The notes: generated by a model from the sequence alone, not told the origin. A stretch of 48,039 bases of DNA from an uncultured Clostridia bacterium (GCA_944350095.1 CALVOB010000033.1:1-48039); one strand, 5' to 3'; shown: positions 3,628 through 42,529, numbered from the stretch's first letter. Numbers and translations: made by a program.

Positions 3628-3661
3628 AAAAAGCCTTATCAATTATGATAAGGCTTTTTTG
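3628..3661. terminator. bidirectional intrinsic terminator between convergent genes
   Basis: aaaaaGCCTTATC-aattat-GATAAGGCtttttt. Perfect 8-bp GC-containing stem flanked by A and T runs. Confidence 0.7.
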
Positions 3662-4259: not shown

Positions 4260-4835
4260 TTAATTGCAACCATTATTTTTAAGTTCCTTTTTAAAACAAT
4301 TATAACACATTCCTTCATACATTTCATCTGCACCAATTTCAACTTCATTGCCTTCTAAAACAATTTTGCCATTAACAAAGCGTGCGTTTATTGTAGCTTT
4401 TCTTCCACATTTGCATACGCTTTTAATTTCCATAAGGCTATCTGATAGTTCAACTAATCGTTTGCTTCCTTCAAAAAGTTCTGTTTTAAAATTTGTAAGA
4501 AGTCCATAACATAGAACGGGTATAGTCAAACTAATTTCTTTAAGTTCGTTTACTTGTTCTTTTGTTAAAAATTGAGCCTCGTCTATTATGAAAACATCTA
4601 TTTTGCTTTCTTTATTGAATTTATTAAAAAATTCAATTAAATTTTCTTTTGGTGAAAATGTTTCACATTTGGCTGTAAGCCCTATTCTAGATGTTACATT
4701 TGAGCTTCTCGTATCTATACTTGGTTTTGCTAGAAGAACATTAAAGCCTTTTTGTATGTAGTTAAATCTGCACATAAGTGCCTGTGCTGTTTTAGAAGAA
4801 CCCATAGAACCATATTTAAAATATAATTTATTCAT
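4260..4835 (-). CDS. tdk: thymidine kinase
   Basis: 191 aa. LYFKYGSMGSSKT P-loop (E. coli-type Tdk), IDEAQF, and C-terminal CxCG..CxxC zinc site. Confidence 0.9.
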   Translation of the reverse strand: MNKLYFKYGSMGSSKTAQALMCRFNYIQKGFNVLLAKPSIDTRSSNVTSRIGLTAKCETFSPKENLIEFFNKFNKESKIDVFIIDEAQFLTKEQVNELKEISLTIPVLCYGLLTNFKTELFEGSKRLVELSDSLMEIKSVCKCGRKATINARFVNGKIVLEGNEVEIGADEMYEGMCYNCFKKELKNNGCN

Positions 4836-7248: not shown

Positions 7249-7273
7249 AAACGGCTAAAATTAGCCGTTTTTT
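7249..7273 (+). terminator. intrinsic terminator after secG
   Basis: AAACGGCTA-aaat-TAGCCGTTT followed by a T run. Confidence 0.75.
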
Positions 7274-7433
7274 AGTTATATGAATATAGTAAAAGTACAA
7301 AAATCCATTTTTGTATTTGCAGAATTTCCATCTGCAACAAAAGCTTTGTCTTTTACAAAAAGTTTTGTTAACAAATTATATTTTGAAAGCTCAAGTTGTA
7401 ATTTTGTTTTTTACATTTTAAAAGGAAAAATTT

Positions 7434-9569
7434 ATGACATTAAAAAATCAAGTTTTAGAAATTTTAAATGATAAATCACTTAAATATAAAAATTTGTATA
7501 GTCTTTATACTCAAATTGGAAGAAAACTTTCTATTGATAGAGAAATTGTGGAAGAAATTGTAAATAAATTAATTAAGTCAGGCGAAGTGGTTGAAGGCAA
7601 AAACGGAAAACTTGCAACCCTTCAAACTTTGAAATTAAAAAAGGGTGAAGTTGCAAATAAAAGCAGAGATTATTTATTTGTTAAAGTTCAAGGTCAGGCA
7701 AGAGATTTTTTTATTCCGTCCGATAAAACTAAAGGGGCAATTTCTGGTGACATAGTTTTAGTGCGTCCTAATGGTGGTAATAATGAAGCAGAAGTTGTAA
7801 AGATAGTTGAAAAAGTTAACAGGCAAGTAGTAGGAATTGTAAAAAAAGATGAAATTGGAACTTTTGTTGAAGCAGATAGATTTACAAAACCAATTTACAT
7901 TCAACCAAAGGACTTAAAAGGTGCAGAAGTAAACGACCTTGTTGTTACTGAAATTACTTATCAGCCATCTTCAAAAGAGGGGTTGCAAGGTAAAGTAAAT
8001 GAAATATTAGGAAAGTCTGACGATAAAGCTATTTTAGAACAAGCTATAATTAAGGATTTTAATCTTCCTACTGAATATTCCAAAGAGGCATTAAACCAAT
8101 GTGAGTATATTGGCGATAAAATAAGTGAAGAAGATAAAAAGGGAAGACTAGACTTAACAAAGGAAACAATTTTTACAATCGACGGGGCAGATGCTCGTGA
8201 TTTAGATGACGCTGTGTCTATAAAAAAATTAGATGATGGTACTTTTGAACTTGGAGTTCATATAGCAGATGTTGGCAACTATGTAACATTAGGTTCTCCG
8301 TTGGATCAAGATGCATTTGAACGCGGAACAAGTGTATATTTTCCTGATAATGTAATTCCAATGCTTCCTAAAAAACTATCAAACGGGATTTGCTCTTTAA
8401 ACCCTAATGTTGAAAGGCTTGCATTGTCTGTTATTATGAAAATAGATTATGAAGGTAAAGTTGTAAGCCACGAAATTAAAGAGAGTGTAATAAAGAGTGT
8501 TCAAAGATTTACCTATGATGAAATTTTTGCAATAATGAATGGCGATAAAGAAATGTGTGAAAAATATGCACATTTAAAAGATGATGTTTTAACAATGCAA
8601 AATTTATCTAATATAATAAAAAAAGACAGAGAAAAAAGAGGCTCTCTTAACTTTGATATTCCAGAGGCAACATTTAAACTTAATGAACAAGGCGAAGTGC
8701 TTGATGTAATGCCAAGAGTGCAAAATGAAGCACATAACTTAATTGAAAGATTTATGGTTATATGTAATGAAACAGTAGCTAAGCATTTTGATGATTTAGG
8801 AGTTCCATTTATATATCGTGTTCATGAAAAGCCTACACCTGAAAGTGTTCAAAATGTTCTTGCATTTATACAGGGATTAGGTGTTAATAGCGTGGTTCCA
8901 CCTAAAAAAATAGACCCAACTTTTTATCAAAGATTATTGTCTTTATTTAAAGGAACGCCAGAGGAAAGCGTTTTAAATAAAGTGTTTTTAATGAGTATGA
9001 AAAAGGCTCGTTATCAAGAGGACGATTTAGGACATTTTGGTCTTGCATCTTTAAATTATTGTCATTTTACTTCCCCTATTAGAAGATATCCAGACCTTTG
9101 CATTCATAGAATAATAAAAGAATGTTTGCATAAAGGTTTTGATAAATCCAAGTTATATGAACTTGAAGATTATGTTACGGAAGCAAGCTTTCAGTCAAGT
9201 AAAACAGAAAGGCGAGCAGATGATGCTGAAAGGGCAGTAGATGACTTGAAAAAAGCTGAATTTATGTCTAAACAAATTGGAAAGGATTTTGAAGGTGTAA
9301 TTTCGGGGGTAACAAACTTTGGAATTTTCGTTCAACTTCCAAATACTGTTGAAGGGCTTATTAAGCTTGAAAATTTGCCAAAAGATGACTATGTGTTTTT
9401 AGATAAAAAAATGATGCTATGTGGAACAAAAAGAAATTATTGTTTAGGCGACACAATTAAAGTAAAAGTTGCTGCAAGTAATGTTTTTACAAGAAAAATA
9501 GATTTTGAACCTGTTATAGAAAAAACTCTAAAAAAAACTCCAAAAAAAACAGAAAATTTATGTAAGTAA
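7434..9569 (+). CDS. rnr: ribonuclease R
   Basis: 711 aa. RNB domain motifs (IDGADARDLDDAVS, HFGL..YCHFTSPIRRYPDL) and C-terminal S1 domain (GVISGVTNFGIFVQL). Confidence 0.92.
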   Translation: MTLKNQVLEILNDKSLKYKNLYSLYTQIGRKLSIDREIVEEIVNKLIKSGEVVEGKNGKLATLQTLKLKKGEVANKSRDYLFVKVQGQARDFFIPSDKTKGAISGDIVLVRPNGGNNEAEVVKIVEKVNRQVVGIVKKDEIGTFVEADRFTKPIYIQPKDLKGAEVNDLVVTEITYQPSSKEGLQGKVNEILGKSDDKAILEQAIIKDFNLPTEYSKEALNQCEYIGDKISEEDKKGRLDLTKETIFTIDGADARDLDDAVSIKKLDDGTFELGVHIADVGNYVTLGSPLDQDAFERGTSVYFPDNVIPMLPKKLSNGICSLNPNVERLALSVIMKIDYEGKVVSHEIKESVIKSVQRFTYDEIFAIMNGDKEMCEKYAHLKDDVLTMQNLSNIIKKDREKRGSLNFDIPEATFKLNEQGEVLDVMPRVQNEAHNLIERFMVICNETVAKHFDDLGVPFIYRVHEKPTPESVQNVLAFIQGLGVNSVVPPKKIDPTFYQRLLSLFKGTPEESVLNKVFLMSMKKARYQEDDLGHFGLASLNYCHFTSPIRRYPDLCIHRIIKECLHKGFDKSKLYELEDYVTEASFQSSKTERRADDAERAVDDLKKAEFMSKQIGKDFEGVISGVTNFGIFVQLPNTVEGLIKLENLPKDDYVFLDKKMMLCGTKRNYCLGDTIKVKVAASNVFTRKIDFEPVIEKTLKKTPKKTENLCK

Positions 9570-9840: not shown

Positions 9841-11337
9841 ATGAGAGTTATTCCTAGAAGAACCAAAGTTAAAATGGAGTTTTTTAAAAATGTTACCTTA
9901 GGTGACATTATTCTTGCTTTTATAGGCGTGGCGGTAGGCTTAGGCTTATTTTTAAGTGGGCTTCCAAATAATCTTGGAATTTGGCTCGGAATAGCTTGGG
10001 TAGCTATAATTGTAAGTTTGTATTTTAAAGTTGCAGATGATGTTAGATTATATCAAACACTTGGTTATGCTATAAGATTTTTAGCTCAAAAAAAGAAATA
10101 TGCAAAAGAAAAAATTAAAAAATTCTATCCTGTTTCTGAAATAATACCTTTTGTTGATATCTATCAAGATAGATTTATTGATTTCAAAGAATACTATGGC
10201 ATGGTTGTAGAAGTTTATCCGTTGGAATTTGGGTTACTTAATGAATATAAACAAGAAATGGTAATAGAAACTTTTGCTAATGCTTTAAGAAGATTATCTG
10301 ATGAGCAAACTGCTTCCATTGTTAAATTAAATAAAGCTATGATTTTAGACTCTTATATTTATAATGAAGATAAAAAGTATGATAATCTTTTAGAGCTTCA
10401 ATATGAGGGGGAAATTAAACCAGAGGAAGTTGAAGTTCGTGCTGGTGTGTTTGAAGAAAGAGTTTCTAGAATGGAAACTATGAACCGTGATGAAAAAATT
10501 TTTAAAGACCATTTTTATGTTGTTGTTTATGATAAAGATAAAGAGCTTTTAGAAAATACAATAAATGGTATAATGAGCACACTTCAAAATTCACCTACAC
10601 CAATGCACACAGAAAGAATAGTTGGTAACGATTTAGCAGTTTTTCTTCGTGCTACATTTGGAAAAGAGTTTGACGAGCGTGAACTTGAAAGCTTGCCGTT
10701 TTCAAAACATGTTGATTGGGCTACACCTAATAAAATAAGATTTCAGGCTAGCAGAGTTATTATAGACGACAAACCTTATAGACAATTTGTTATAAGCGAT
10801 TATCCACTTCAAGTTCCAAATGCTTGGGGATATCCATTTTATAGGCTTGATAGAACAAGAGTTATAACAAAAATTAAACCTGTTCAAAAATTTAAAGCAG
10901 AGCGTGCATTAGATAAAGCCATAATGGAAATGGAAACAAAAGTTGCAAAAGTGGCTAGAAGTAGTAGACAAATTGAAAATCAAACACACCTTCAAACTTT
11001 AAGGGAGTTACTTGCAGGTTTAAAAAACAATAACCAACAACTTTATGATGTAAATATTTTTATTACATGTGAAGAACCTGCAAGAAAAGAGGTTAGAGCT
11101 ATCTTAAAGCAACAAGGATTTAAATATTCCGAAATGTTTGGTCGTCAAGTTGATGCATTTATTAGCTCAAATATTTCTATGAGAGATAATGTGGAAAATA
11201 CCAAACGCGGAATACCAACAACAACTTTGGCTGCTATTTTCCCATTTGTATCAAGTGCACTTCAAGACCCTAATGGTTTCTATATTGGATATAACGAATT
11301 CCCTGTGTTTGTAGATTTCTTTAAAAGAGATAGGTAA
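9841..11337 (+). CDS. VirB3-like TM segment plus VirB4/TrsE-family N-terminal domain (upstream part of a split conjugation-type ATPase)
   Basis: 498 aa. Two N-terminal TM helices (PrgI/VirB3-like), then a soluble domain. Ends at TAA 11335-11337, in frame with the next ORF and just before its P-loop. Confidence 0.65.
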   Translation: MRVIPRRTKVKMEFFKNVTLGDIILAFIGVAVGLGLFLSGLPNNLGIWLGIAWVAIIVSLYFKVADDVRLYQTLGYAIRFLAQKKKYAKEKIKKFYPVSEIIPFVDIYQDRFIDFKEYYGMVVEVYPLEFGLLNEYKQEMVIETFANALRRLSDEQTASIVKLNKAMILDSYIYNEDKKYDNLLELQYEGEIKPEEVEVRAGVFEERVSRMETMNRDEKIFKDHFYVVVYDKDKELLENTINGIMSTLQNSPTPMHTERIVGNDLAVFLRATFGKEFDERELESLPFSKHVDWATPNKIRFQASRVIIDDKPYRQFVISDYPLQVPNAWGYPFYRLDRTRVITKIKPVQKFKAERALDKAIMEMETKVAKVARSSRQIENQTHLQTLRELLAGLKNNNQQLYDVNIFITCEEPARKEVRAILKQQGFKYSEMFGRQVDAFISSNISMRDNVENTKRGIPTTTLAAIFPFVSSALQDPNGFYIGYNEFPVFVDFFKRDR

Positions 11338-11352
11338 AGAGTTAATAGTAAT

Positions 11353-12468
11353 ATGATGATTATAGGAAAATCTGGTTCTGGTAAATCCTATGCTACTAAA
11401 ACACTACTTGCTAACTTTGCCGCGGATAATACAAAGGTGTTTATTCTTGACCCAGAAGATGAATATACTCAGCTATCTAAAAACCTTAGAGGTAAATGGA
11501 TTGATGTAGGTTCTTCTGCAATGGGAATTATAAATCCTTTCCATATTATCACTTCTCTTGAAGCCGATGAGGGTGGAGATGATGATTCTTATTCTATCCA
11601 CTTACAGTTTTTGGAACAATTCTTTAAAGTTATTATGGAAGGAATGAATAGTGAATCATTTGAAATTTTAAACTCTGCGGTTGTAGAAGTTTATAAGCAA
11701 AAGGGAATTGGCCCTGGGGTAGAACTTTCTAAGCTTAAACCTGAAGATTTCCCTATATTTGATGATTTATATAAGTATATATTAAACAAAATTGACACAG
11801 CAAAAACTGAGTACGAAAGAAAGAACTACATGACAGTTGAAACTTATGTTAAAAAGTTTGCTAGCGGAGGAAGAAACTCTAATCTTTGGAATGGTCCAAC
11901 TAGTATGGAAACAAAAGAAAATTTTGTTACATTCAATTTCCGTTCTCTTCTTGCAAACAGAAACCAAGTTATAGCAAACGCTCAAATGCTTCTTGTATTC
12001 AAATATCTTGATAACGAAATTATAAAAAACAAGGATTTTAATGAAAGGTTTAATATAAAGCGTAAAATAGTTATAGCTGTTGATGAAGCGCACGTTTTCA
12101 TTAATCCAAACTATCCAATAGCGCTAGATTTCATGGCGCAAATGGCAAAGCGTATTCGTAAGTATAATGGAATGCAAATTGTTATTACGCAAAATATTAA
12201 GGACTTCGTTGGTTCACAAGAAATTCAGCGTCAGTCTACCGCGGTTATTAACGCCAGCCAATATTCATTTATTTTCTCGCTTTCACCAAACGATATGAAC
12301 GACTTAGTAGAGCTTTATAGAAAGTCTGGTGAAATTAATGAGGAAGAGCAAAATAGCATTGTTACCGCAGGTGTAGGTCAGGCTTTCTTGATTACAGGAC
12401 CTATGAGTAGAACAATGGTGCAGATTGTTGCTTATGACTATGTAAAAAGAATTTTTAGTCAAGATTAA
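11353..12468 (+). CDS. VirB4/AAA_10-type ATPase domain (downstream part of split gene)
   Basis: 371 aa. Walker A IIGKSGSGKSY, ILDPEDEY, Walker B IAVDEAHVF. Same frame as 9841 (11353-9841 = 1512 = 3x504). Confidence 0.75.
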   Translation: MMIIGKSGSGKSYATKTLLANFAADNTKVFILDPEDEYTQLSKNLRGKWIDVGSSAMGIINPFHIITSLEADEGGDDDSYSIHLQFLEQFFKVIMEGMNSESFEILNSAVVEVYKQKGIGPGVELSKLKPEDFPIFDDLYKYILNKIDTAKTEYERKNYMTVETYVKKFASGGRNSNLWNGPTSMETKENFVTFNFRSLLANRNQVIANAQMLLVFKYLDNEIIKNKDFNERFNIKRKIVIAVDEAHVFINPNYPIALDFMAQMAKRIRKYNGMQIVITQNIKDFVGSQEIQRQSTAVINASQYSFIFSLSPNDMNDLVELYRKSGEINEEEQNSIVTAGVGQAFLITGPMSRTMVQIVAYDYVKRIFSQD

Positions 12469-12541: not shown

Positions 12542-14326
12542 ATGTTGTATAAAGACTTAATGACAAAAGATACTTATACTGATTTACAAGATTATCTTGA
12601 ACTAGGAGAAGATGCAATCACTTTGATGGGCTATGATAGATCTAGAAGCGTAGATGGAACAAAACTTATAAAAAGGTTTCAAACTACTGCTGACCCAGAG
12701 CTTATGGGAATGGTTAATTCTTTTTCTGGTGATGATGTCATGATTGGTGTGCCAAAGTATGCAGATCGTGGATACTCTTCTTTTGTTGTAAGAGATAAAT
12801 CTTTATCAATCAGGTATCCTTTAACAGGAACTGTTGGAGCTGTTAAGAAATATTTTACACAAAGTGAAAAAACATGCCCTAATTTTAAAAGTGTAATTAA
12901 TGAAATTGAAAGGGCTTTTAAAGTTAAAGTAAAAGATGATGAAAGAATTTCTAAGCCTATATCTTACTTTGGTGGTACAATAAGGCTTGCGGGAAGATTT
13001 GGTGGAGAAAAAGTTAGCGAAGCTGATAAATTAGTGCAAGTATTTAATTTGTTAGCTAAAAATGCAATAAAGGATAAATTCAAAAATACAACAAATCCTG
13101 ATAGAGTTAAATTTGCAACCGAACTTTTAACTACAATGTTTATTGCTGAAAGTTATGATTTAGGTGTTAACTTCAATAGAAAAATCGACAATGCTTTAAG
13201 GCTTCAACTATCTAACACCATAGCTGCTCTTGGAAATGCAAACAAGGAAACAATAAATTTAATTTCTTCACAAGCAGAAAAGGCTGTTGCAAAATTTTTG
13301 AAAAAGAGTGGAAAATCTCCAAGTGATATAGTTAAAACATTAACTAAGTTAGGTTATACTTATACAAAAAATCCAACAAATCTTTATGAAGTGCTTTTTG
13401 GAGAAAGAAAAAACTATATGTTTACACAGGAAGTTTCACAAAAAGATGCAGATGAAATTTTAGGAAAAGTTACTTATTACGACGAAACTCAAGAGGAAAA
13501 TAATTTTGCTAAAGATATGAAAAGAGAACAGGAAAAATACGATACTAAAAAACAAATTCCAGGAACTGAAACTATGATAAGGCTTGAAGGAGAAGAAAAA
13601 CCTTCAGAAAAATCTATTTTTGATTTTGCAGATGATATGGTAGATGAACTTGGAGAAGGGTTAAAAATAGACAAAAAAGTGCCAGATGTAATTCATTTAC
13701 CAGGTAAAGTGGAAGAAAAGCCAGATGTTATAATTCTTCCAGGGAAAGTTGAACCTAAATTGCCAGAAATAACATTAGAACAATTTGTAGCAAAACTTTT
13801 AGAAGAAAATGAAAATAAGGCTTATATTAAGGCTATTGAAGGTAAAATAGATCATAAAAAATCATTGTTTGGCGGGAAAACACAAGTTAAAGATGGAGTT
13901 TCAGAAAGAACTTTAAAAACTATTTTTGATAAAGCGGTTGTTAAAGAGCTTGAAAGTGCATGCAAGGAAATTGTAAGCCAATTTAGAAAAGAAAAAGGTC
14001 AAATTAAAGATGTGCTTTCAGATATATATAATCAACTTACTCACGCAAAACAATTCTTTGGAAAAAGTAGTGACAGAAAGGATATAAAAGCTGTAAGTGG
14101 AAAAATAGTTGAAGCTAAAAAAGTAAAACTTGGGCTTGTAAAACCTTTGGAAGAAAGAAGAAAAGAGTTTATTGAAGAAACAATGGCTTATCAAGATGCT
14201 TTAAGGGGATATGCTCCAACTGAAGATATTAAAGCTAAAATTAAATCTTTATCTGATGCTAAAAAGATTAAAGAAATGGTTAATCGTTATGTTCAATCTC
14301 AAAAAGATGCGGGAATTGAAAAGTAA
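12542..14326 (+). CDS. hypothetical soluble protein (594 aa), partner of the VirB4-like ATPase
   Basis: ATG 12542 lies 5 nt after SD AGGAGGG (12530-12536). The track's 12473 start lacks an SD and overlaps the promoter. No TM segment and no motif I recognise. Internal 13-aa tandem repeat PDVI(H/I)LPGKVE(E/P)K. Confidence 0.7.
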   Translation: MLYKDLMTKDTYTDLQDYLELGEDAITLMGYDRSRSVDGTKLIKRFQTTADPELMGMVNSFSGDDVMIGVPKYADRGYSSFVVRDKSLSIRYPLTGTVGAVKKYFTQSEKTCPNFKSVINEIERAFKVKVKDDERISKPISYFGGTIRLAGRFGGEKVSEADKLVQVFNLLAKNAIKDKFKNTTNPDRVKFATELLTTMFIAESYDLGVNFNRKIDNALRLQLSNTIAALGNANKETINLISSQAEKAVAKFLKKSGKSPSDIVKTLTKLGYTYTKNPTNLYEVLFGERKNYMFTQEVSQKDADEILGKVTYYDETQEENNFAKDMKREQEKYDTKKQIPGTETMIRLEGEEKPSEKSIFDFADDMVDELGEGLKIDKKVPDVIHLPGKVEEKPDVIILPGKVEPKLPEITLEQFVAKLLEENENKAYIKAIEGKIDHKKSLFGGKTQVKDGVSERTLKTIFDKAVVKELESACKEIVSQFRKEKGQIKDVLSDIYNQLTHAKQFFGKSSDRKDIKAVSGKIVEAKKVKLGLVKPLEERRKEFIEETMAYQDALRGYAPTEDIKAKIKSLSDAKKIKEMVNRYVQSQKDAGIEK

Positions 14327-14330
14327 ACTA

Positions 14331-14362
14331 AAATTCAACAGGAAAACCTGTTGAATTTTTTT
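14331..14362 (+). terminator. intrinsic terminator
   Basis: AAATTCAACAGG-aaaa-CCTGTTGAATTT followed by a T run. Perfect 12-bp stem. Confidence 0.8.
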
Positions 14363-14834: not shown

Positions 14835-15190
14835 GGGGGCGAACAGGTTTCGACGGGGAAGTAGTAAAATTTGCATAAAGCGTGTGGCAGTGTGGATTCT
14901 GCCTTAAAAGCCACAAAAAAATAAACGCAGATTATAGCGAAAATTTAGTTGCTGCCTAAGCGCACAACACGCTTTCCTAAATGCGCACGAGTTTAGGGCA
15001 AAGCGTTCAAATTTCGTGAGCCTTTAAAACAAATTTAGTGCTGTTTTGTTTTAAAAAATTTTAAAGCGCTGGCAAAAGCATACTTGTTTATGATTATGTT
15101 TTTGTAAGATAAAAGAGCATAAACTACACATCGTAGAAAAGCAAATTTTGCCTTTTTCGGACGCGGGTTCAATTCCCGCCGCTTCCACCA
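14835..15190 (+). ncRNA. ssrA: transfer-messenger RNA (tmRNA)
   Basis: 5' GGGGGCG pairs with 3' CGCTTCC-ACCA (G3:U pair, alanine identity). T-arm GGACGCGGGTTCAATTCCCGCC. Tag ORF GCA GAT TAT AGC GAA AAT TTA GTT GCT GCC TAA (14927-14959) encodes (A)ADYSENLVAA. Confidence 0.9.
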
Positions 15191-15207
15191 ATTTTAATGG
15201 AGAAATT

Positions 15208-15675
15208 ATGCGAAAGATAAGAACAACACTTCTCTATATTATTAAAGATAACAAAATTTTACTTGCAGAGAAAAAACGCGGTTTTGGAGTTGGAAAATTA
15301 AATGGGGTTGGTGGCAAGATAGAAAATGACGAAAGTATAGAACAAGCTATGCTTCGTGAAACTATGGAGGAGATTGGTGTTACACCAATAGACTTTGAAC
15401 AACGCGCAACTATTCATTTTGACTTTTTTTATAAGGGTGAAAAAGAAAAGGAAGACACCTATGTTTTTGTTGCCTCTAATTATATTGGAGAGTTGATAGA
15501 AACAGAAGAAATGAAACCAAAATGGTTTGAGTTAAAAAATCTTCCATTTGAAAAAATGTTTTCAGATGACAGGCTGTGGCTTAATTCTTTAATAGAAGGA
15601 AAAAAATTTGAAGCAAACATAATATTAGATGAAAACTTTAATACAACAGATTTTAATATAAAATATATAAAATAA
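15208..15675 (+). CDS. Nudix hydrolase (MutT/8-oxo-dGTPase-like)
   Basis: Nudix box GGKIENDESIEQAMLRETMEEIGV. ATG 15208 follows GGAGA. The track's 15148 start lies inside the tmRNA 3' end. Confidence 0.85.
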   Translation: MRKIRTTLLYIIKDNKILLAEKKRGFGVGKLNGVGGKIENDESIEQAMLRETMEEIGVTPIDFEQRATIHFDFFYKGEKEKEDTYVFVASNYIGELIETEEMKPKWFELKNLPFEKMFSDDRLWLNSLIEGKKFEANIILDENFNTTDFNIKYIK

Positions 15676-17665: not shown

Positions 17666-17707
17666 AAAATATTTCCGTTAATTGTGGCGGAAATATTTTT
17701 TTTGTGA
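17666..17707 (+). terminator. intrinsic terminator
   Basis: AAAATATTTCCG-ttaattgtgg-CGGAAATATTTT followed by a T run. Confidence 0.7.
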
Positions 17708-17719
17708 TAATATAGTACT

Positions 17720-18571
17720 ATGAGATTTTTAAGTTTTGCAGGTTTTAAAAAAAGAAAACTAAAAATAGGGTTAGCTCTTGGGGGAGGAGGTGCAAGAGGC
17801 TTTTCTCACTTGGGTGCCTTAAAAGCGTTTGAAGAATATGGATTAGACTTTGATTATGTTTGTGGTACTAGTGCTGGAAGTTTAGTAGGAGCTTTCTATG
17901 CTGCTGGATATAATTACAAACAAATTTTTGATGTTGCAAAAACTATAAAAACTAAGGATATTAGAACTAGCAAACTTTTTTTTGTACCTTCTAAAACTGA
18001 TGGGATTGAAAAAATTATTACGGACAACTTAGGAGATATAAATATAGAAGACTTGAAAAAACCTTTTTCTGCGGTGGCAGTGGATATAAAATCTACCAAT
18101 GAAGTGTGTATTACAAAAGGAAATCTTGCAAAAGCAGTGGCAGGTAGTTGTTGTGTTCCCGGAATATTTCAACCAGTAGAATTTGGTGATAGGCTTTTAT
18201 GTGATGGCGGACTTCAAAATACAATGCCAGCAGATATCCCTAAACTTATGGGCTGTGATTATGTTGTTGCAGTTGATGTAAATAAATCTAGAACTTATGG
18301 GACTTCTTCTACTAAAATGTTAGATGTTTTAGCTTGTGCTATTAGAATTTTAATGAAAGGAAATGTAGTAAAAGGTTATGTAAATGGTGATGTAATTTTA
18401 AAACCTGAAACTAAGAGATTTAAATCTACTAGTACGGAAGGTTATCTTGACATGATTGAGGAGGGTTACCGCGAGGCGATAGATAAAATGCCAGATGTTC
18501 TTGCGTTATTTCAGGGAAGAGCACCTAAAAAGAAAGTTGAATTACATGAGGAGAATTTTGAGATTATATAA
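17720..18571 (+). CDS. patatin-like phospholipase
   Basis: 283 aa. Oxyanion GGGGARG, nucleophile GTSAGS, and catalytic Asp in a DGG motif (LCDGGLQN). Confidence 0.85.
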   Translation: MRFLSFAGFKKRKLKIGLALGGGGARGFSHLGALKAFEEYGLDFDYVCGTSAGSLVGAFYAAGYNYKQIFDVAKTIKTKDIRTSKLFFVPSKTDGIEKIITDNLGDINIEDLKKPFSAVAVDIKSTNEVCITKGNLAKAVAGSCCVPGIFQPVEFGDRLLCDGGLQNTMPADIPKLMGCDYVVAVDVNKSRTYGTSSTKMLDVLACAIRILMKGNVVKGYVNGDVILKPETKRFKSTSTEGYLDMIEEGYREAIDKMPDVLALFQGRAPKKKVELHEENFEII

Positions 18572-19686
18572 TGGCAAAAGAAAAAAATTATAAAGGTTTA
18601 TTTATTAGATGTTTAATTGCTCTAATTTTTGTTGGGCTACTTCTTTCAACCTATTTTGTTAGAGAGCAGATTGAAAATTATTTAAATTCAGTTTTATATC
18701 CAGAAGTATCTGATGATATTTCCAATTCCAAACTTATTATGCACTTTATAAATGTTGGCAATGCAGATGCAATAGCTATTGAACTTCCAAATGGTGAACA
18801 TATGCTCATTGATAGTGGTGACAACAATAATACATCTCGTGAAGCACTTATTTCCTATTTAGATAATAATTTTTTTGAAAATGGCGAAGAAAAAGTTTTT
18901 GATTACTTTATTCTTACACATTCTGACGCTGACCATGTGGGAGGTGCGGAAATTGTTTTAAATACATACAAAATTGAAAAATGTTTTAGACCATATCAAT
19001 TCACAGAGCAGGAGGCAACTGAAAATAATATAACAAATAAAAATAATATTGTAACTACGCAAGTTTTTCAAAAATTTGTGAATGCTTTGGAGAAAGAAAA
19101 TTGTGAAGTTGAGTTTTTTACCGTAAATTCTGATATCAATTTTTCTGATTTTAATATAAACTTTATAGCTCCAGTTGAAACTACTTTTTCCGATACTAAT
19201 AATTATTCTCCTGTTATGATTTTAACTTATGCAGGAGTTAAAACAATGTTTACAGGTGATGCAGAAAAGGAGGTTGAAGATTCTCTGCTAGACTTGTATA
19301 GCGATTATAGTGGGGAATATGCTACTAGTGTATTGGATATAGACATCTTAAAAGTAGGACATCATGGTAGCGATACTTCTTCTACAGAAGACTTTATTAA
19401 GGCTACAACTCCGAGTTATGCGGTTATATGTACAGACGGAAAGGAATATGGTCACCCAAGTAAAACAGTTTTAAATAGGCTTCAAAACAATGGAACTAAA
19501 AATATTTATAGAACAGACTTGAACGGCAATATTGTTATAGGTGTTAGTGAAGATGGTACAATTTCTGCTGTTTTAGGCACCATTACAAAAGGATTTAAGA
19601 TTGAATGGTATCAATTAGTTATTTTAGTTGGTTCGGTTGGGTTGGTTATTATTTTTACAATTGGAAAAAAGAAGAAAGCTAAATAG
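18571..19686 (+). CDS. ComEC/Rec2-related metallo-beta-lactamase-fold hydrolase (membrane anchored)
   Basis: 371 aa. N- and C-terminal TM helices. LTHSDADHVGG (HxHxDH), GDAE and KVGHHGS motifs typical of the ComEC C-terminal MBL domain. TAATG coupling to the patatin gene. Confidence 0.8.
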   Translation: MAKEKNYKGLFIRCLIALIFVGLLLSTYFVREQIENYLNSVLYPEVSDDISNSKLIMHFINVGNADAIAIELPNGEHMLIDSGDNNNTSREALISYLDNNFFENGEEKVFDYFILTHSDADHVGGAEIVLNTYKIEKCFRPYQFTEQEATENNITNKNNIVTTQVFQKFVNALEKENCEVEFFTVNSDINFSDFNINFIAPVETTFSDTNNYSPVMILTYAGVKTMFTGDAEKEVEDSLLDLYSDYSGEYATSVLDIDILKVGHHGSDTSSTEDFIKATTPSYAVICTDGKEYGHPSKTVLNRLQNNGTKNIYRTDLNGNIVIGVSEDGTISAVLGTITKGFKIEWYQLVILVGSVGLVIIFTIGKKKKAK

Positions 19687-19773
19687 CACGGAAGTAAATT
19701 TTGCAAAGCAAAATTTTAAAAACTGCACTTTGTGCAGTTTTTTGCTTGTGGCAAGCCACAAGCACTTCCGTGC
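19686..19773. repeat. 88-nt perfect nested palindrome (outer stem plus three hairpins; four-way junction), copy 1
   Basis: Outer stem 19686-19695/19764-19773 (10 bp). Hairpins at 19696-19716 (9 bp), 19718-19742 (11 bp, TTT loop) and 19744-19763 (8 bp). All pairs are Watson-Crick. Confidence 0.7.
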
Positions 19774-22542: not shown

Positions 22543-22612
22543 AAAATTTGAATATTTTATAACAAAGTACATAAAATAAACTTGCGAATAGCTATAAGGC
22601 TTCCTCGCACAA

Positions 22613-22639
22613 GCGCCTATAAAACGAGGCGCTTTTTTT
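22613..22639 (+). terminator. intrinsic terminator after tkt
   Basis: GCGCCT-ataaaacg-AGGCGC followed by TTTTTTT. Confidence 0.75.
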
Positions 22640-22688: not shown

Positions 22689-26135
<3,447 letters not shown>

Positions 26136-26232
26136 AGGTTTTAAAAGGTTATTAAAAGAGCGTTGTCAAATTTTTAAGGCTTTTATAAATAAAATATTTA
26201 AAAATAGACTTTTAATAGATTATATAAAAAAA

Positions 26233-26319
26233 ATGCCCATGCGCGCGGAGAAATTTATTTCTCCGCAAGCGGGCTTTTTTAAAGCCCGCTTGGCACTTTT
26301 AGTGCCAGCGCATGGGCAT
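26233..26319. repeat. 87-nt perfect nested palindrome (outer stem plus three hairpins; four-way junction), copy 2
   Basis: Outer stem 26233-26244/26308-26319 (12 bp). Hairpins at 26245-26266 (9 bp), 26267-26291 (11 bp, TTT loop) and 26292-26306 (6 bp, TTT loop). All pairs are Watson-Crick. Confidence 0.7.
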
Positions 26320-26458
26320 GCAAAAACAGCAGAGATTTATAATGTTCTGCTGTTTTGCTAGGTAAAGAAATAACTTTCTTTACACTATTAATTTATGTAG
26401 TTTTAAAAATATTATTCAAAAATTATAAAAATTTTTACATTTATGTTATAATAAATTT

Positions 26459-27190
26459 ATGAGAGTGTTAATTACAATAGAATATAATGGTAAATATTTT
26501 AATGGCTGGCAAAGGCAAAAAAAAGGGATAGGAGTACAAGAAGTATTAGAAAATGCTTTAAGAAATCTTTTAAAAGAAGAAATTACATTAGTTGCAAGTG
26601 GAAGGACAGACGCTGGCGTACATGCAATATGCCAATATGCACATTTTGACACACATACAAATTTTGCATTAGATAAGCTTCCTTTTGCAATAAATGTAAA
26701 TCTTCCTAATGGGGTAAGAGTGCTTTCAGCAAAGCAAGTAGATAATTCTTTTAATGCAAGAACAAGTGCACATAAAAAAACATATTTATATAAACTTTAC
26801 ACAAGAAAAATTTTAAGCCCATTGCGAGAAGAATATTTTGCAAATGTTCCTTATGAATTAGATTACAATAAAATGATAGAAGCCTCTAAGCTTTTTTTAG
26901 GCAAGCACAATTTTAAAGGCTTTTGTTCTGAGGGTTCAAGTGTAATTAATTTTGAAAGAGAAATTTTTTCTTTTACAATAGATAAATTTGAAGATGAATA
27001 TTATTTCAAAATTACAGGTAACGGTTTTTTGTATAACATGGTTAGAAGAATAGTGGCTAGCGTTGTGGAAGTTGGCAAAAATAAATTAGAATTAAAAGAT
27101 ATTGCTTTTGCTCTTAAAAACTTTGAACAAAAGCATATTACAAAGGTTATGCCAGCCTGTGGGTTGTATCTTTATAATGTTGAATATTAA
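26459..27190 (+). CDS. truA: tRNA pseudouridine(38-40) synthase
   Basis: 243 aa. YNGKYFNGWQRQ and catalytic-Asp motif ASGRTDAGVHA, plus GFLYNMVRRIV. Confidence 0.9.
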   Translation: MRVLITIEYNGKYFNGWQRQKKGIGVQEVLENALRNLLKEEITLVASGRTDAGVHAICQYAHFDTHTNFALDKLPFAINVNLPNGVRVLSAKQVDNSFNARTSAHKKTYLYKLYTRKILSPLREEYFANVPYELDYNKMIEASKLFLGKHNFKGFCSEGSSVINFEREIFSFTIDKFEDEYYFKITGNGFLYNMVRRIVASVVEVGKNKLELKDIAFALKNFEQKHITKVMPACGLYLYNVEY

Positions 27191-29033: not shown

Positions 29034-29064
29034 AAAAATGCGAGGTATACACCTTGCATTTTTA
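29034..29064 (+). terminator. intrinsic terminator after rpsI
   Basis: AAAAATGCGAGG-tataca-CCTTGCATTTTT (one G-U pair). Confidence 0.75.
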
Positions 29065-29239
29065 TTTAAGTTTTATATTGAGATGAAATTTATCCAAGCT
29101 AGTTATTTATGATTTATTTTACTAAATAAAAGCTTGTCGATTATATTTTATAACATACTTTTAGATATGCTATTAAAATTTTTAACTTATTTAGTTTTAT
29201 TTTTTTTTAAAATGTGATATTCTAAACGAGGAGTTTTTT

Positions 29240-42416: not shown

Positions 42417-42426
42417 TTAAAAAAAT

Positions 42427-42454
42427 AAAAAATCACGGTATCCGTGATTTTTTA
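42427..42454 (+). terminator. intrinsic terminator
   Basis: AAAAATCACGG-tat-CCGTGATTTTT. Confidence 0.8.
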
Positions 42455-42529
42455 TTGCCATGGATTTTATTATTTAATATAATGATATAGGATATTAAAT
42501 ATAAAAAAATTTAATTTATGTGAGTGATT

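Follow-up and report, generated by a model that had tools for sequence, protein, structure and literature searches.

A perfectly paired four-way junction after nifJ in an uncultured Clostridia bacterium: a possible terminator-associated 3'-end structure

Between nifJ, which codes for a pyruvate:ferredoxin/flavodoxin oxidoreductase (PFOR), and the co-directional gene truA of an uncultured Clostridia bacterium lies an 87-nt palindrome (here named e2; positions 26233-26319) that can be folded into a closed four-way junction. It was noticed in a first-pass annotation of the 48,039-nt stretch of DNA analyzed here (GCA_944350095.1 CALVOB010000033.1:1-48039; hereafter the window), together with a sibling element, e1, located upstream in the same stretch. 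What kind of element is e2, and how is its flawless pairing kept? The reading that we tentatively favor is that e2 is a lineage-specific, terminator-associated RNA structure of the nifJ 3' end, kept perfect by selection for stability together with template switching. That e2 is not a coincidence is indicated by orthologous junctions located after nifJ in related bacteria, which keep perfect pairing despite sequence change. The feature is undescribed in Rfam or in the literature searched.

The positions of stems, hairpins, and loops (Table 1), as well as the count of 38 Watson-Crick pairs with zero G-U, turned out to be exactly those first claimed: a 12-bp stem encloses hairpins of 9, 11, and 6 bp (A, B, and C, respectively). 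Analysis by RNAfold returned the four-way junction as both the minimum free energy (MFE) and the centroid structure. The plus-strand RNA folded at -62.6 kcal/mol (z = -11.6), none of 200 dinucleotide-shuffled sequences being as stable, and the minus strand adopted an identical fold with the same energy (-62.6 kcal/mol, z = -11.7). Using DNA parameters, the value was -43.4 kcal/mol (z = -12.7). A 100-nt sliding MFE scan of all 48 kb gave -63.7 at e2 and -47.7 at e1 (19686-19773), over a background with a mean of -13.7, a standard deviation of 4.9, and a third-ranked value of -30.6; e1 and e2 are the sole extreme folding outliers within the 48 kb. The high local GC content noted in the AT-rich spacer was also found (61% in the e2 stems, 20% in its flanks, and 29% in the window), and the open reading frame (ORF) 26125-26361 (78 aa, TTG start), earlier taken to merely read through the palindrome, does pass through e2 and is a read-through artifact.

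Spacers between nifJ and truA were recovered from five lineages beyond that of the window by genome, metagenome, and exact-protein look-ups. The closest genomes by nifJ were those of Candidatus Caccopulliclostridium gallistercoris (L001, 84% aa) and of an uncultured Clostridia metagenome-assembled genome (L002, 79%). Comparison of the nifJ 3' regions of relatives, which the first-pass annotation had proposed, revealed junctions with wholesale double-sided compensatory changes. Since the spacers of the recovered lineages carry the junction in present, decayed, or absent state (Table 1), e2 was gained within a genus-level subclade. MAFFT alignment of the orthologues was structurally meaningless and a manual stem-by-stem comparison was used instead; a covariance-model alignment mixed plus- and minus-strand rows, and was excluded from the pair statistics. 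In the junction-anchored comparison, at least two pair types were observed at 28 of the 30 aligned pair positions, and every cell was Watson-Crick.

Apart from short cores, the e2 orthologues differ almost throughout, with perfect pairing over 32-51 pairs. These cores are CA(T/A)GCG in the outer stem (common to e2 and its orthologues in L002, L161, and L177), CAAG.GGGC in hairpin B, and the TTT loop of hairpin C, retained in four of four lineages. Hairpin B is represented by CAAGAGGGC(T) in L002, by CAAGGGC in L161, and by an 18-bp stem in L177. Strain variants of e2 itself comprise three alleles that differ only in the second base of the hairpin A loop (TTTA, TGTA, and TATA), the stems being unchanged. 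Strain L180, which carries the L002 type, shows one C-to-T change that generates a G·U pair, and has lost one terminal pair. Taking ten elements together, only 2 G·U occurred among 388 predicted pairs. The GC content of the stems was 45-72% in every lineage, compared with 17-37% in the flanks and 29-40% in the genomes; since stems stay GC-rich while their sequences differ, continuing selection for thermodynamic stability is implied.

The first-pass annotation had stressed a likeness between e2 and e1. A common architecture without shared sequence was borne out by a covariance model that was built from e2 alone and scored on all 48 kb and on the fetched loci with filters off: e1 was the best non-self match across the 48 kb (31.6 bits on the minus strand and 23.4 on the plus strand; E ~2e-5 and ~2e-3, respectively). 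The exact numbers that had been emphasized (38 pairs, an 11-bp central hairpin, and 87/88 nt) are coincidental, since e2 orthologues span 74-114 nt, 32-51 pairs, and central hairpins of 7-18 bp. The same model retrieved e2 orthologues and scored 33.5 bits for a junction in the distant relative L082, 26.9 for e1 of L001, and 20.8 for a junction in L164. Default filters missed e1, L082, and L177, and the L177 element, with its 18-bp central hairpin, was not aligned by this model even with filters off.

Two detectors, one for perfect pairing and the other RNAfold-based, were run over ~2.25-2.4 Mb of fetched loci. The perfect Watson-Crick multibranch detector found 8 structures in 2.25 Mb (window plus fetched loci) and 1 in the locally shuffled sequence; six of the eight lay in the genus-level clade of the window and a seventh in L082. 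Beyond that clade and L082, the detectors gave one three-way example (L093), and the shuffled sequence one weak match. A class defined by structure (a perfect closing stem of 9-15 bp, exactly three hairpins, at most 4 unpaired junction nt, and a place at a gene or tRNA 3' end) accommodates the proposed members e1, e2, the L082 and L164 junctions, and a third locus in L002. Element e1 has outer arms GCACGGAAGT/ACTTCCGTGC and an intrinsic-terminator-like central hairpin, A5-CTGCAC-TTT-GTGCAG-T6. It is also perfect in L001 and in L166/L167; the near-identical copy of L165 has two mismatches close to the contig end, and in L168 and L169 a G-to-A change generates an A·C mismatch. The e1 position is occupied in L164 by the 113-nt imperfect junction. 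A metagenome search with the protein of the metallo-beta-lactamase (MBL)-fold hydrolase that precedes e1 gave one close locus, which was incomplete.

Several other structures were observed around these loci. The L082 junction (15285-15365; 81 nt, 34 bp, perfect) starts right after the encoded CCA of a tRNA-Thr(CGU), within a tRNA-junction region that spans 15209-15365, and its first hairpin is followed by TTGTTTTTTTT, resembling an intrinsic terminator. The third four-way junction of L002 (~11165-11253) lies ~107 nt past rpsI and a canonical terminator, with TTGACA-N15-TAAAAT before the outer stem and a T-rich tail after it; the equivalent place in the window holds a plain terminator only (29036-29065). 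L161 (11129-11721; also L162 and L163) carries at the e1 position rearranged, tandem GC-rich hairpin modules instead of e1, two copies of which are 97% identical over 139 nt and lie ~160 nt apart; after these comes the motif TGCGGGGGGGGGTAGAAT, found again as TGCGGGGGGGGTAAAAT upstream of the third L002 junction. In the window, a weak AT-rich candidate (e3; -16 kcal/mol) scored 11.2 bits with the e2 model (E = 1.7), which is not significant alone, and its resemblance to the junctions could be chance.

All junctions seen occupy the 3' end of a unit, with genes of the same direction on either side, in keeping with the suggestion that such elements mark operon ends. In four independent cases the junction directly adjoins that end: e1 in a stop codon, the L161 e2 at one, the L177 e2 1 nt past one, and the L082 junction after the tRNA-Thr CCA. 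In the window, 97 nt separate the nifJ stop codon from e2. The GC-rich hairpin expected of an intrinsic terminator is present in e2, all four helices being perfect. No U-tract (at least 5 T within ~8 nt) was found directly 3' of any e2 helix, and the terminator scan omits e2; hairpins A, B, and C and the outer stem are followed by AAGCGGGC, GGCACTTT, AGCGCATG, and GCAAAAAC, respectively. Such a U-tract does follow the adjoining hairpin at 26320-26358 (TTTTGCT), e1 hairpin B, and the first hairpin of the L082 junction. On the coding strand, T-rich tracts follow the central e1 hairpin of both the window and L001, the middle one of the reversed L002 copy, and the first one of the L082 junction. 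Terminators also replace junctions, with a plain terminator hairpin at the e1 site of L172 and a terminator only at the e2 site of L173/L174. The nifJ terminator is kept, its bulge included, in L002, L161, L177, L001, and the junction-less L173/L174, and the small hairpin at 26362-26383 is present, with compensatory changes, in every relative, whether or not it has e2. Five ordinary terminators of the window (3628-3659, 7249-7270, 14330-14359, 22611-22634, and 42424-42456) are perfect Watson-Crick palindromes of 8-15 bp free of G-U, and most have an A-tract pairing with the T-tract (bidirectional type). Because ordinary terminators are also perfect palindromes with A/T tracts, the junction hairpins are of the same kind as the terminators of this genome.

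The co-directional spacers, the flush ends, the adjoining or internal U-tract hairpins, the interchange with terminators, and the GC-rich stems favor a module of transcription-unit ends. No promoter-like site above background was found directly upstream of e2, and L161 and L177 leave no room for one; e2 is thus presumably co-transcribed with nifJ. According to this favored reading, e2 would be vertically inherited and transcribed within the nifJ 3' untranslated region (UTR). Its three consecutive GC-rich hairpins would fold during transcription, and the 12-bp outer stem would then enclose them, giving a compact four-helix junction in which hardly any base is unpaired. Standing against the nifJ terminator, the junction may reinforce or insulate the 3' end, and may block 3'-to-5' exoribonucleases such as polynucleotide phosphorylase (PNPase) or RNase R, the latter encoded in the window. 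It could also act as a roadblock or termination backup, so that an abundant mRNA would be protected and less transcription would read through into truA. What matters would be the geometry and stability of the helices alone, which would leave the sequence free to change. The flawless pairing would result from selection for stability acting jointly with quasipalindrome/template-switch mutation, which would copy one arm from the other and could also invert the segment between inverted repeats.

Several observations weigh against this proposal. The e1 and L082 junctions contain a terminator-like hairpin, and their outer stem is nonetheless perfectly conserved; RNA terminated there would lack the outer 3' arm and therefore could not form a four-way junction, which points to DNA, or to read-through RNA only. 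The scarcity of G-U (2 of 388 pairs) and the equal energies of both strands are unusual for selection acting on RNA only. The L002 e1 has its hairpins in reversed order and is still perfect, and the L001 e2 remnant is inverted relative to its near-identical relative L177. Since the nifJ terminator keeps its bulge in all lineages, arm-to-arm perfecting would not be universal. Finally, the element seems to be dispensable, because it has been lost or has decayed in L001 and L173/L174, as has e1 in L161 and L172. Internal terminators, strand symmetry, and orientation flips keep two DNA-level readings alive.

The first is that the element is a functional DNA structure, either folded single-stranded DNA or an extruded double cruciform, bound by a structure-specific protein (candidates being HU-like proteins, gyrase, a junction-binding or -resolving enzyme, or a recombinase) and acting at operon ends in the manner of repetitive extragenic palindromic (REP) sequences and bacterial interspersed mosaic elements (BIMEs). 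We consider this rather unlikely, though a serious rival to the favored reading. It would account for a strand-symmetric fold without G-U and with equal energies, for retention in either orientation, and for the 0-1 unpaired bases at the junction, as in immobile Holliday junctions; moreover, the internal terminators of e1 and L082 make a full RNA junction unlikely in terminated transcripts. Several GAA/GGA loops are closed by C-G (GCGAAGC in L161 and L002), a GCGAAGC-type loop being an exceptionally stable DNA mini-hairpin, and many independent metagenome contigs end at or inside the elements. However, there is no conserved sequence for a protein to read, the window holds no recombinase, transposase, or HUH nuclease gene, and extrusion from duplex DNA is inefficient for stems of 6-12 bp that enclose 55-65 nt. 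In the reversed L002 e1, a T-rich tract follows the middle hairpin on the coding strand only, which suggests that the RNA is under constraint. The composition of the loops and the few polymorphisms that disturb pairing (A·C in L168, G·U plus the lost pair in L180, and the deletion in L171) point to neither strand in particular.

The contigs in question are short-read metagenome contigs that start or end at or inside elements (L162, L163, L165, L167, L170, L175, L179, and L180); the truA-bearing contigs of close relatives (P0121-P0124) are only 1.3-2 kb long. These breaks suggest coverage drop-out, graph breaks at structures, or heterogeneity of orientation.

The second DNA-level reading dispenses with function: terminators would seed nested inverted repeats, and template switching would perfect and flip them and let them drift until deletion. 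Arm homogenization, spacer inversion, and both the origin and the upkeep of perfect RNA hairpins have been documented for template switching between inverted repeats (PMC8794818, PMC8604942). The segment enclosed by the outer arms was inverted twice, once in the L002 e1 and once in the L001 e2. In both L002 and L171, the latter an L002-type copy of e1 with a 1-nt deletion, the recognizable AAATTTTGC hairpin is last and not first, which is where an interior inversion would place it. The L001 e2 remnant consists of hairpin C (loop AAA), hairpin A (loop CTT), and the outer 3' arm, with order and loop sense inverted relative to L177; the flanks of both loci are near-identical, their content at the e2 site being wholly different. 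All of this, together with perfect pairing on both strands, near absence of G-U, and frequent gain, loss, and decay among close lineages, is what neutral palindromes of this sort would produce. Nevertheless, AT-biased drift in genomes of 29% GC would be expected to yield AT-rich stems and not the 45-72% GC observed, and three hairpins within one stem at four or more unrelated loci, four cases flush with a gene end, the near absence of junctions from ~2.1 Mb of other bacteria, and the bulge retained by the adjacent nifJ terminator also speak against this reading. We regard the neutral origin as unlikely.

Somewhat more credible, if still doubtful, is an undescribed class defined by structure only, in which perfect four-helix junctions would mark where transcription units and tRNA genes end in one clade of uncultured, AT-rich Clostridia of the gut and would be read as RNA or as extruded DNA, in either orientation, by a structure-specific factor for termination, insulation, or 3'-end processing. 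As such an element would carry no sequence information, continuous rebuilding by template switching would be possible.

Insertion of a mobile element was also considered. A non-autonomous element, similar to REPs or to miniature inverted-repeat transposable elements (MITEs), would have the outer stem as its terminal inverted repeats and would insert between stop codons and terminators. With respect to L173/L174, e2 does resemble an insertion between the nifJ stop codon and the terminator, its composition is foreign to the flanks, and a 225-nt MITE-like repeat of the sister genus occupies exactly the same niche, 4 nt past a stop codon, and occurs three times in 19 kb. This origin is improbable because no second copy of any of nine elements was found with blastn-short in the window and 2.4 Mb of related loci, where only orthologous loci matched, and plasmid and phage searches with the elements gave no match. 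In addition, a search of 5.8 billion proteins with the read-through ORF retrieved only two same-species variants, the orthologues share one locus, with divergence that parallels that of the flanking genes, and the ends of e1 and e2 show no clear target-site duplication.

The MITE-like repeat itself (~225 nt) is bounded by 8-bp terminal inverted repeats, CAGACTGC...GCAGTCTG, and contains several hairpins. Copies lie in L001 at 618-847, 12866-13115, and 18746-18884 (three in ~19 kb), and in L165 at 4468-4697. Two copies lie 4 nt past a stop codon, upstream of the terminator, and one of these, past the nifJ stop codon, disrupted the L001 e2. The repeat is absent from the window and has no Rfam match. 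An 18-nt identity was observed between e1 hairpin A and a hairpin in the L001 repeat, possibly by chance, given that one arm of a palindrome determines the other.

Could e2 be an independent small RNA (sRNA), or a leader, either riboswitch-like or protein-binding, with control over the adjacent terminator and truA? The terminator directly after the junction is placed like an expression platform after an aptamer, and a GC-rich intergenic region in an AT-rich genome is a signature used for finding structured non-coding RNAs (PMC6429828, PMC11109978). Against this stand the lack of conserved unpaired nucleotides, with loops and junction bases varying or absent, the lack of a promoter-like site, the L161 and L177 elements being flush with the nifJ stop codon, and the unrelated genes located downstream of e1 and the L082 junction; no Rfam score was near the gathering threshold. 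Such a role is highly improbable. The best permissive Rfam scores were 24.6 bits for e2 (threshold 100) and 28.1 for e1 (threshold 141), and the Rfam 15 gathering search of the window returned the transfer-messenger RNA (tmRNA) only. A riboswitch or aptamer was rejected on the absence of conserved unpaired nt, the junctions having 0-3 unpaired, varying bases and the e2 orthologues the loops TTTA, TTT, GAA, AAC, and ATAC. A tRNA- or tmRNA-like nature of e2 was also rejected, its stems being of 6-12 bp with variable loops of 3-4 nt, and ARAGORN finding no match to it; over the window this program reported only the tmRNA at 14835-15190.

The position of e2 in the 3' UTR of a gene with an in-frame UGA had led the first-pass annotation to suggest, as a weak link, a recoding element comparable to a selenocysteine insertion sequence (SECIS). 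Co-occurrence is what speaks for this idea, and it fails because the UGA is a local lesion where relatives have Asp-Gly. The TGA is at 23208-23210, where HFFF*FRTSHE stands in the window and the invariant HFFDGFRTSHE in every relative, so that UGA replaces Gly; the lesion is a clustered GATG to TTTT change inside a T-run (window 23196-23210). It is either an error of sequencing or assembly or a recent pseudogenizing lesion, and not a recoding signal. TGA is the ordinary stop for 6 of 42 long ORFs in the window, orthologous junctions follow intact nifJ genes of 1144-1146 aa, e1 follows an unrelated gene, and the L082 junction a tRNA. A bacterial SECIS sits directly after its UGA; e2 is not directly 3' of a conserved selenocysteine UGA and lies ~3.0 kb downstream of that of nifJ. 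The codon comparison with relatives and the use of stop codons thus rule out a recoding role for e2, which retains scarcely any probability. Nor is nifJ the sole disrupted gene of the window: an in-frame TAA (11335-11337) leaves a HerA/TraG-like P-loop ATPase divided between ORFs 9841-11337 and 11353-12468, and L161 and L164 have an intact single version of 875 aa.

Table 1. Coordinates of e2, its orthologues, neighboring features, and related elements.
Feature	Sequence	Position	Strand	Remarks
e2 outer stem, 5' arm	window	26233-26244	+	ATGCCCATGCGC; perfect pairing with 26308-26319
e2 hairpin A	window	26245-26266	+	9 bp; arms GCGGAGAAA/TTTCTCCGC; loop TTTA
e2 hairpin B	window	26267-26291	+	11 bp; arms AAGCGGGCTTT/AAAGCCCGCTT; loop TTT
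e2 hairpin C	window	26292-26306	+	6 bp; arms GGCACT/AGTGCC; loop TTT; A26307 unpaired
e2 outer stem, 3' arm	window	26308-26319	+	GCGCATGGGCAT; pairs with 26233-26244
e2 orthologue	L002 (and strain L180)	8240-8319		junction present; 80 nt, 35 bp
e2 orthologue	L161 (identical in L179)	17701-17774		junction present; 74 nt, 32 bp; begins at stop codon
e2 orthologue	L177	675-788		junction present; 114 nt, 49-51 bp; begins 1 nt past stop codon
e2 site	L001			reduced to decayed remnant
e2 site	L173, L174, L176			no junction; terminator and small hairpin only; truA 67-68% identical
nifJ (PFOR), upstream gene	window	22698-26135	+	Pfam POR_N, PFOR_II, POR, EKR, Fer4, TPP_enzyme_C
nifJ intrinsic terminator	window	26320-26358	+	canonical; directly abuts e2; hairpin with one bulged A, then TTTTGCT
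Small hairpin	window	26362-26383	+	GTAAAGAAA-TAAC-TTTCTTTAC; between terminator and truA promoter region
truA, co-directional downstream gene	window	26459-27190	+	Pfam PseudoU_synth_1
e1, sibling four-way junction	window	19686-19773	+	starts at last base of stop codon of MBL-fold hydrolase
e1 orthologue	L001	6642-6738		
e1 orthologue	L002	1975-2064		hairpin order reversed
e3, weak AT-rich candidate	window	7289-7356	+	68 nt; 7-bp outer stem and three hairpins, 25-26 pairs; after secG terminator

The window is a stretch of chromosome with housekeeping genes from an uncultured low-GC gut Clostridium. It carries genes for rhamnose biosynthesis, secG, RNase R, smpB, the tmRNA, a patatin-like protein, the MBL-fold hydrolase, transketolase, nifJ, truA, rplM/rpsI, lysS, and holB, and no transposase, integrase, recombinase, reverse-transcriptase, or HUH genes were found within the 48 kb. 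The tmRNA gene (tag ADYSENLVAA) is located directly after smpB, and its 3' end is overlapped by the listed NUDIX ORF 15148-15675, whose true start is probably farther downstream.

If junctions of this type do act as 3'-end modules, they would represent a new architecture among bacterial terminators and mRNA stabilizers, a closed four-helix junction without a sequence signature, and would provide a clean natural case of a structure that is kept while its sequence turns over completely. They also bear on whether perfect hairpins originate and are maintained by selection or by template-switch mutation, as double-sided changes, mismatches arising in single steps among strain variants, inversions, and decay are all seen at the same loci. 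On the practical side, the elements seem to break short-read metagenome assemblies and to generate spurious ORF calls in poorly known gut bacteria.

Among known systems, intrinsic terminators (bidirectional or compound) and 3' stem-loop stabilizers share with the junctions the position at unit ends and short-looped, GC-rich hairpins with perfect pairing. A U-tract hairpin is contained in e1 and in the L082 junction and abutted by e2, and plain terminators substitute for junctions in relatives; in contrast to terminators, no e2 helix has a U-tract, and the three hairpins are locked in a long closing stem. To our knowledge, no terminator class with a closed four-helix junction exists, and none was found in the Rfam or literature searches. 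Integron attC sites lie directly 3' of ORFs, are of similar length, conserve structure without sequence, and can have branched terminal structures. The junctions differ from them in having neither core sites, extrahelical bases, a central spacer, nor an integrase, and in being flanked by housekeeping genes and a tRNA; attC was rejected for e2, as RYYYAAC/GTTRRRY core sites, bulges, internal loops, and an unpaired central spacer are all absent. In the inverted terminal repeats (ITRs) of the parvovirus adeno-associated virus (AAV), an outer stem surrounds small perfect palindromes and flip and flop forms occur. Nested palindromes and the inversions seen in the junctions recall them, but the junctions are internal to chromosomes, have three inner hairpins instead of two, and lack a nicking site or Rep gene, so that the resemblance is one of shape only.

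Template-switch hairpins (quasipalindrome mutation) have perfect arms, concerted double-sided changes, and spacer inversions, all seen here; yet template switching is a mutational mechanism and not a functional class, and alone it leaves the three-hairpin architecture, the GC-richness, and the placement unexplained. The REPs and BIMEs of enterobacteria are extragenic GC-rich palindromes located at operon 3' ends in either orientation, with proposed roles in mRNA stabilization, termination, and gyrase or HU binding (PMC3333891, PMC4550694). The junctions are likewise extragenic, GC-rich, and found at 3' ends in both orientations. REPs, however, are high-copy, sequence-conserved, single imperfect hairpins linked to REP-associated tyrosine transposases (RAYTs), whereas each junction locus has its own sequence, perfect pairing, and a nested architecture, and no copies of it were found. 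The most economical classification of the junctions is as terminator-associated or REP-like extragenic palindromes.

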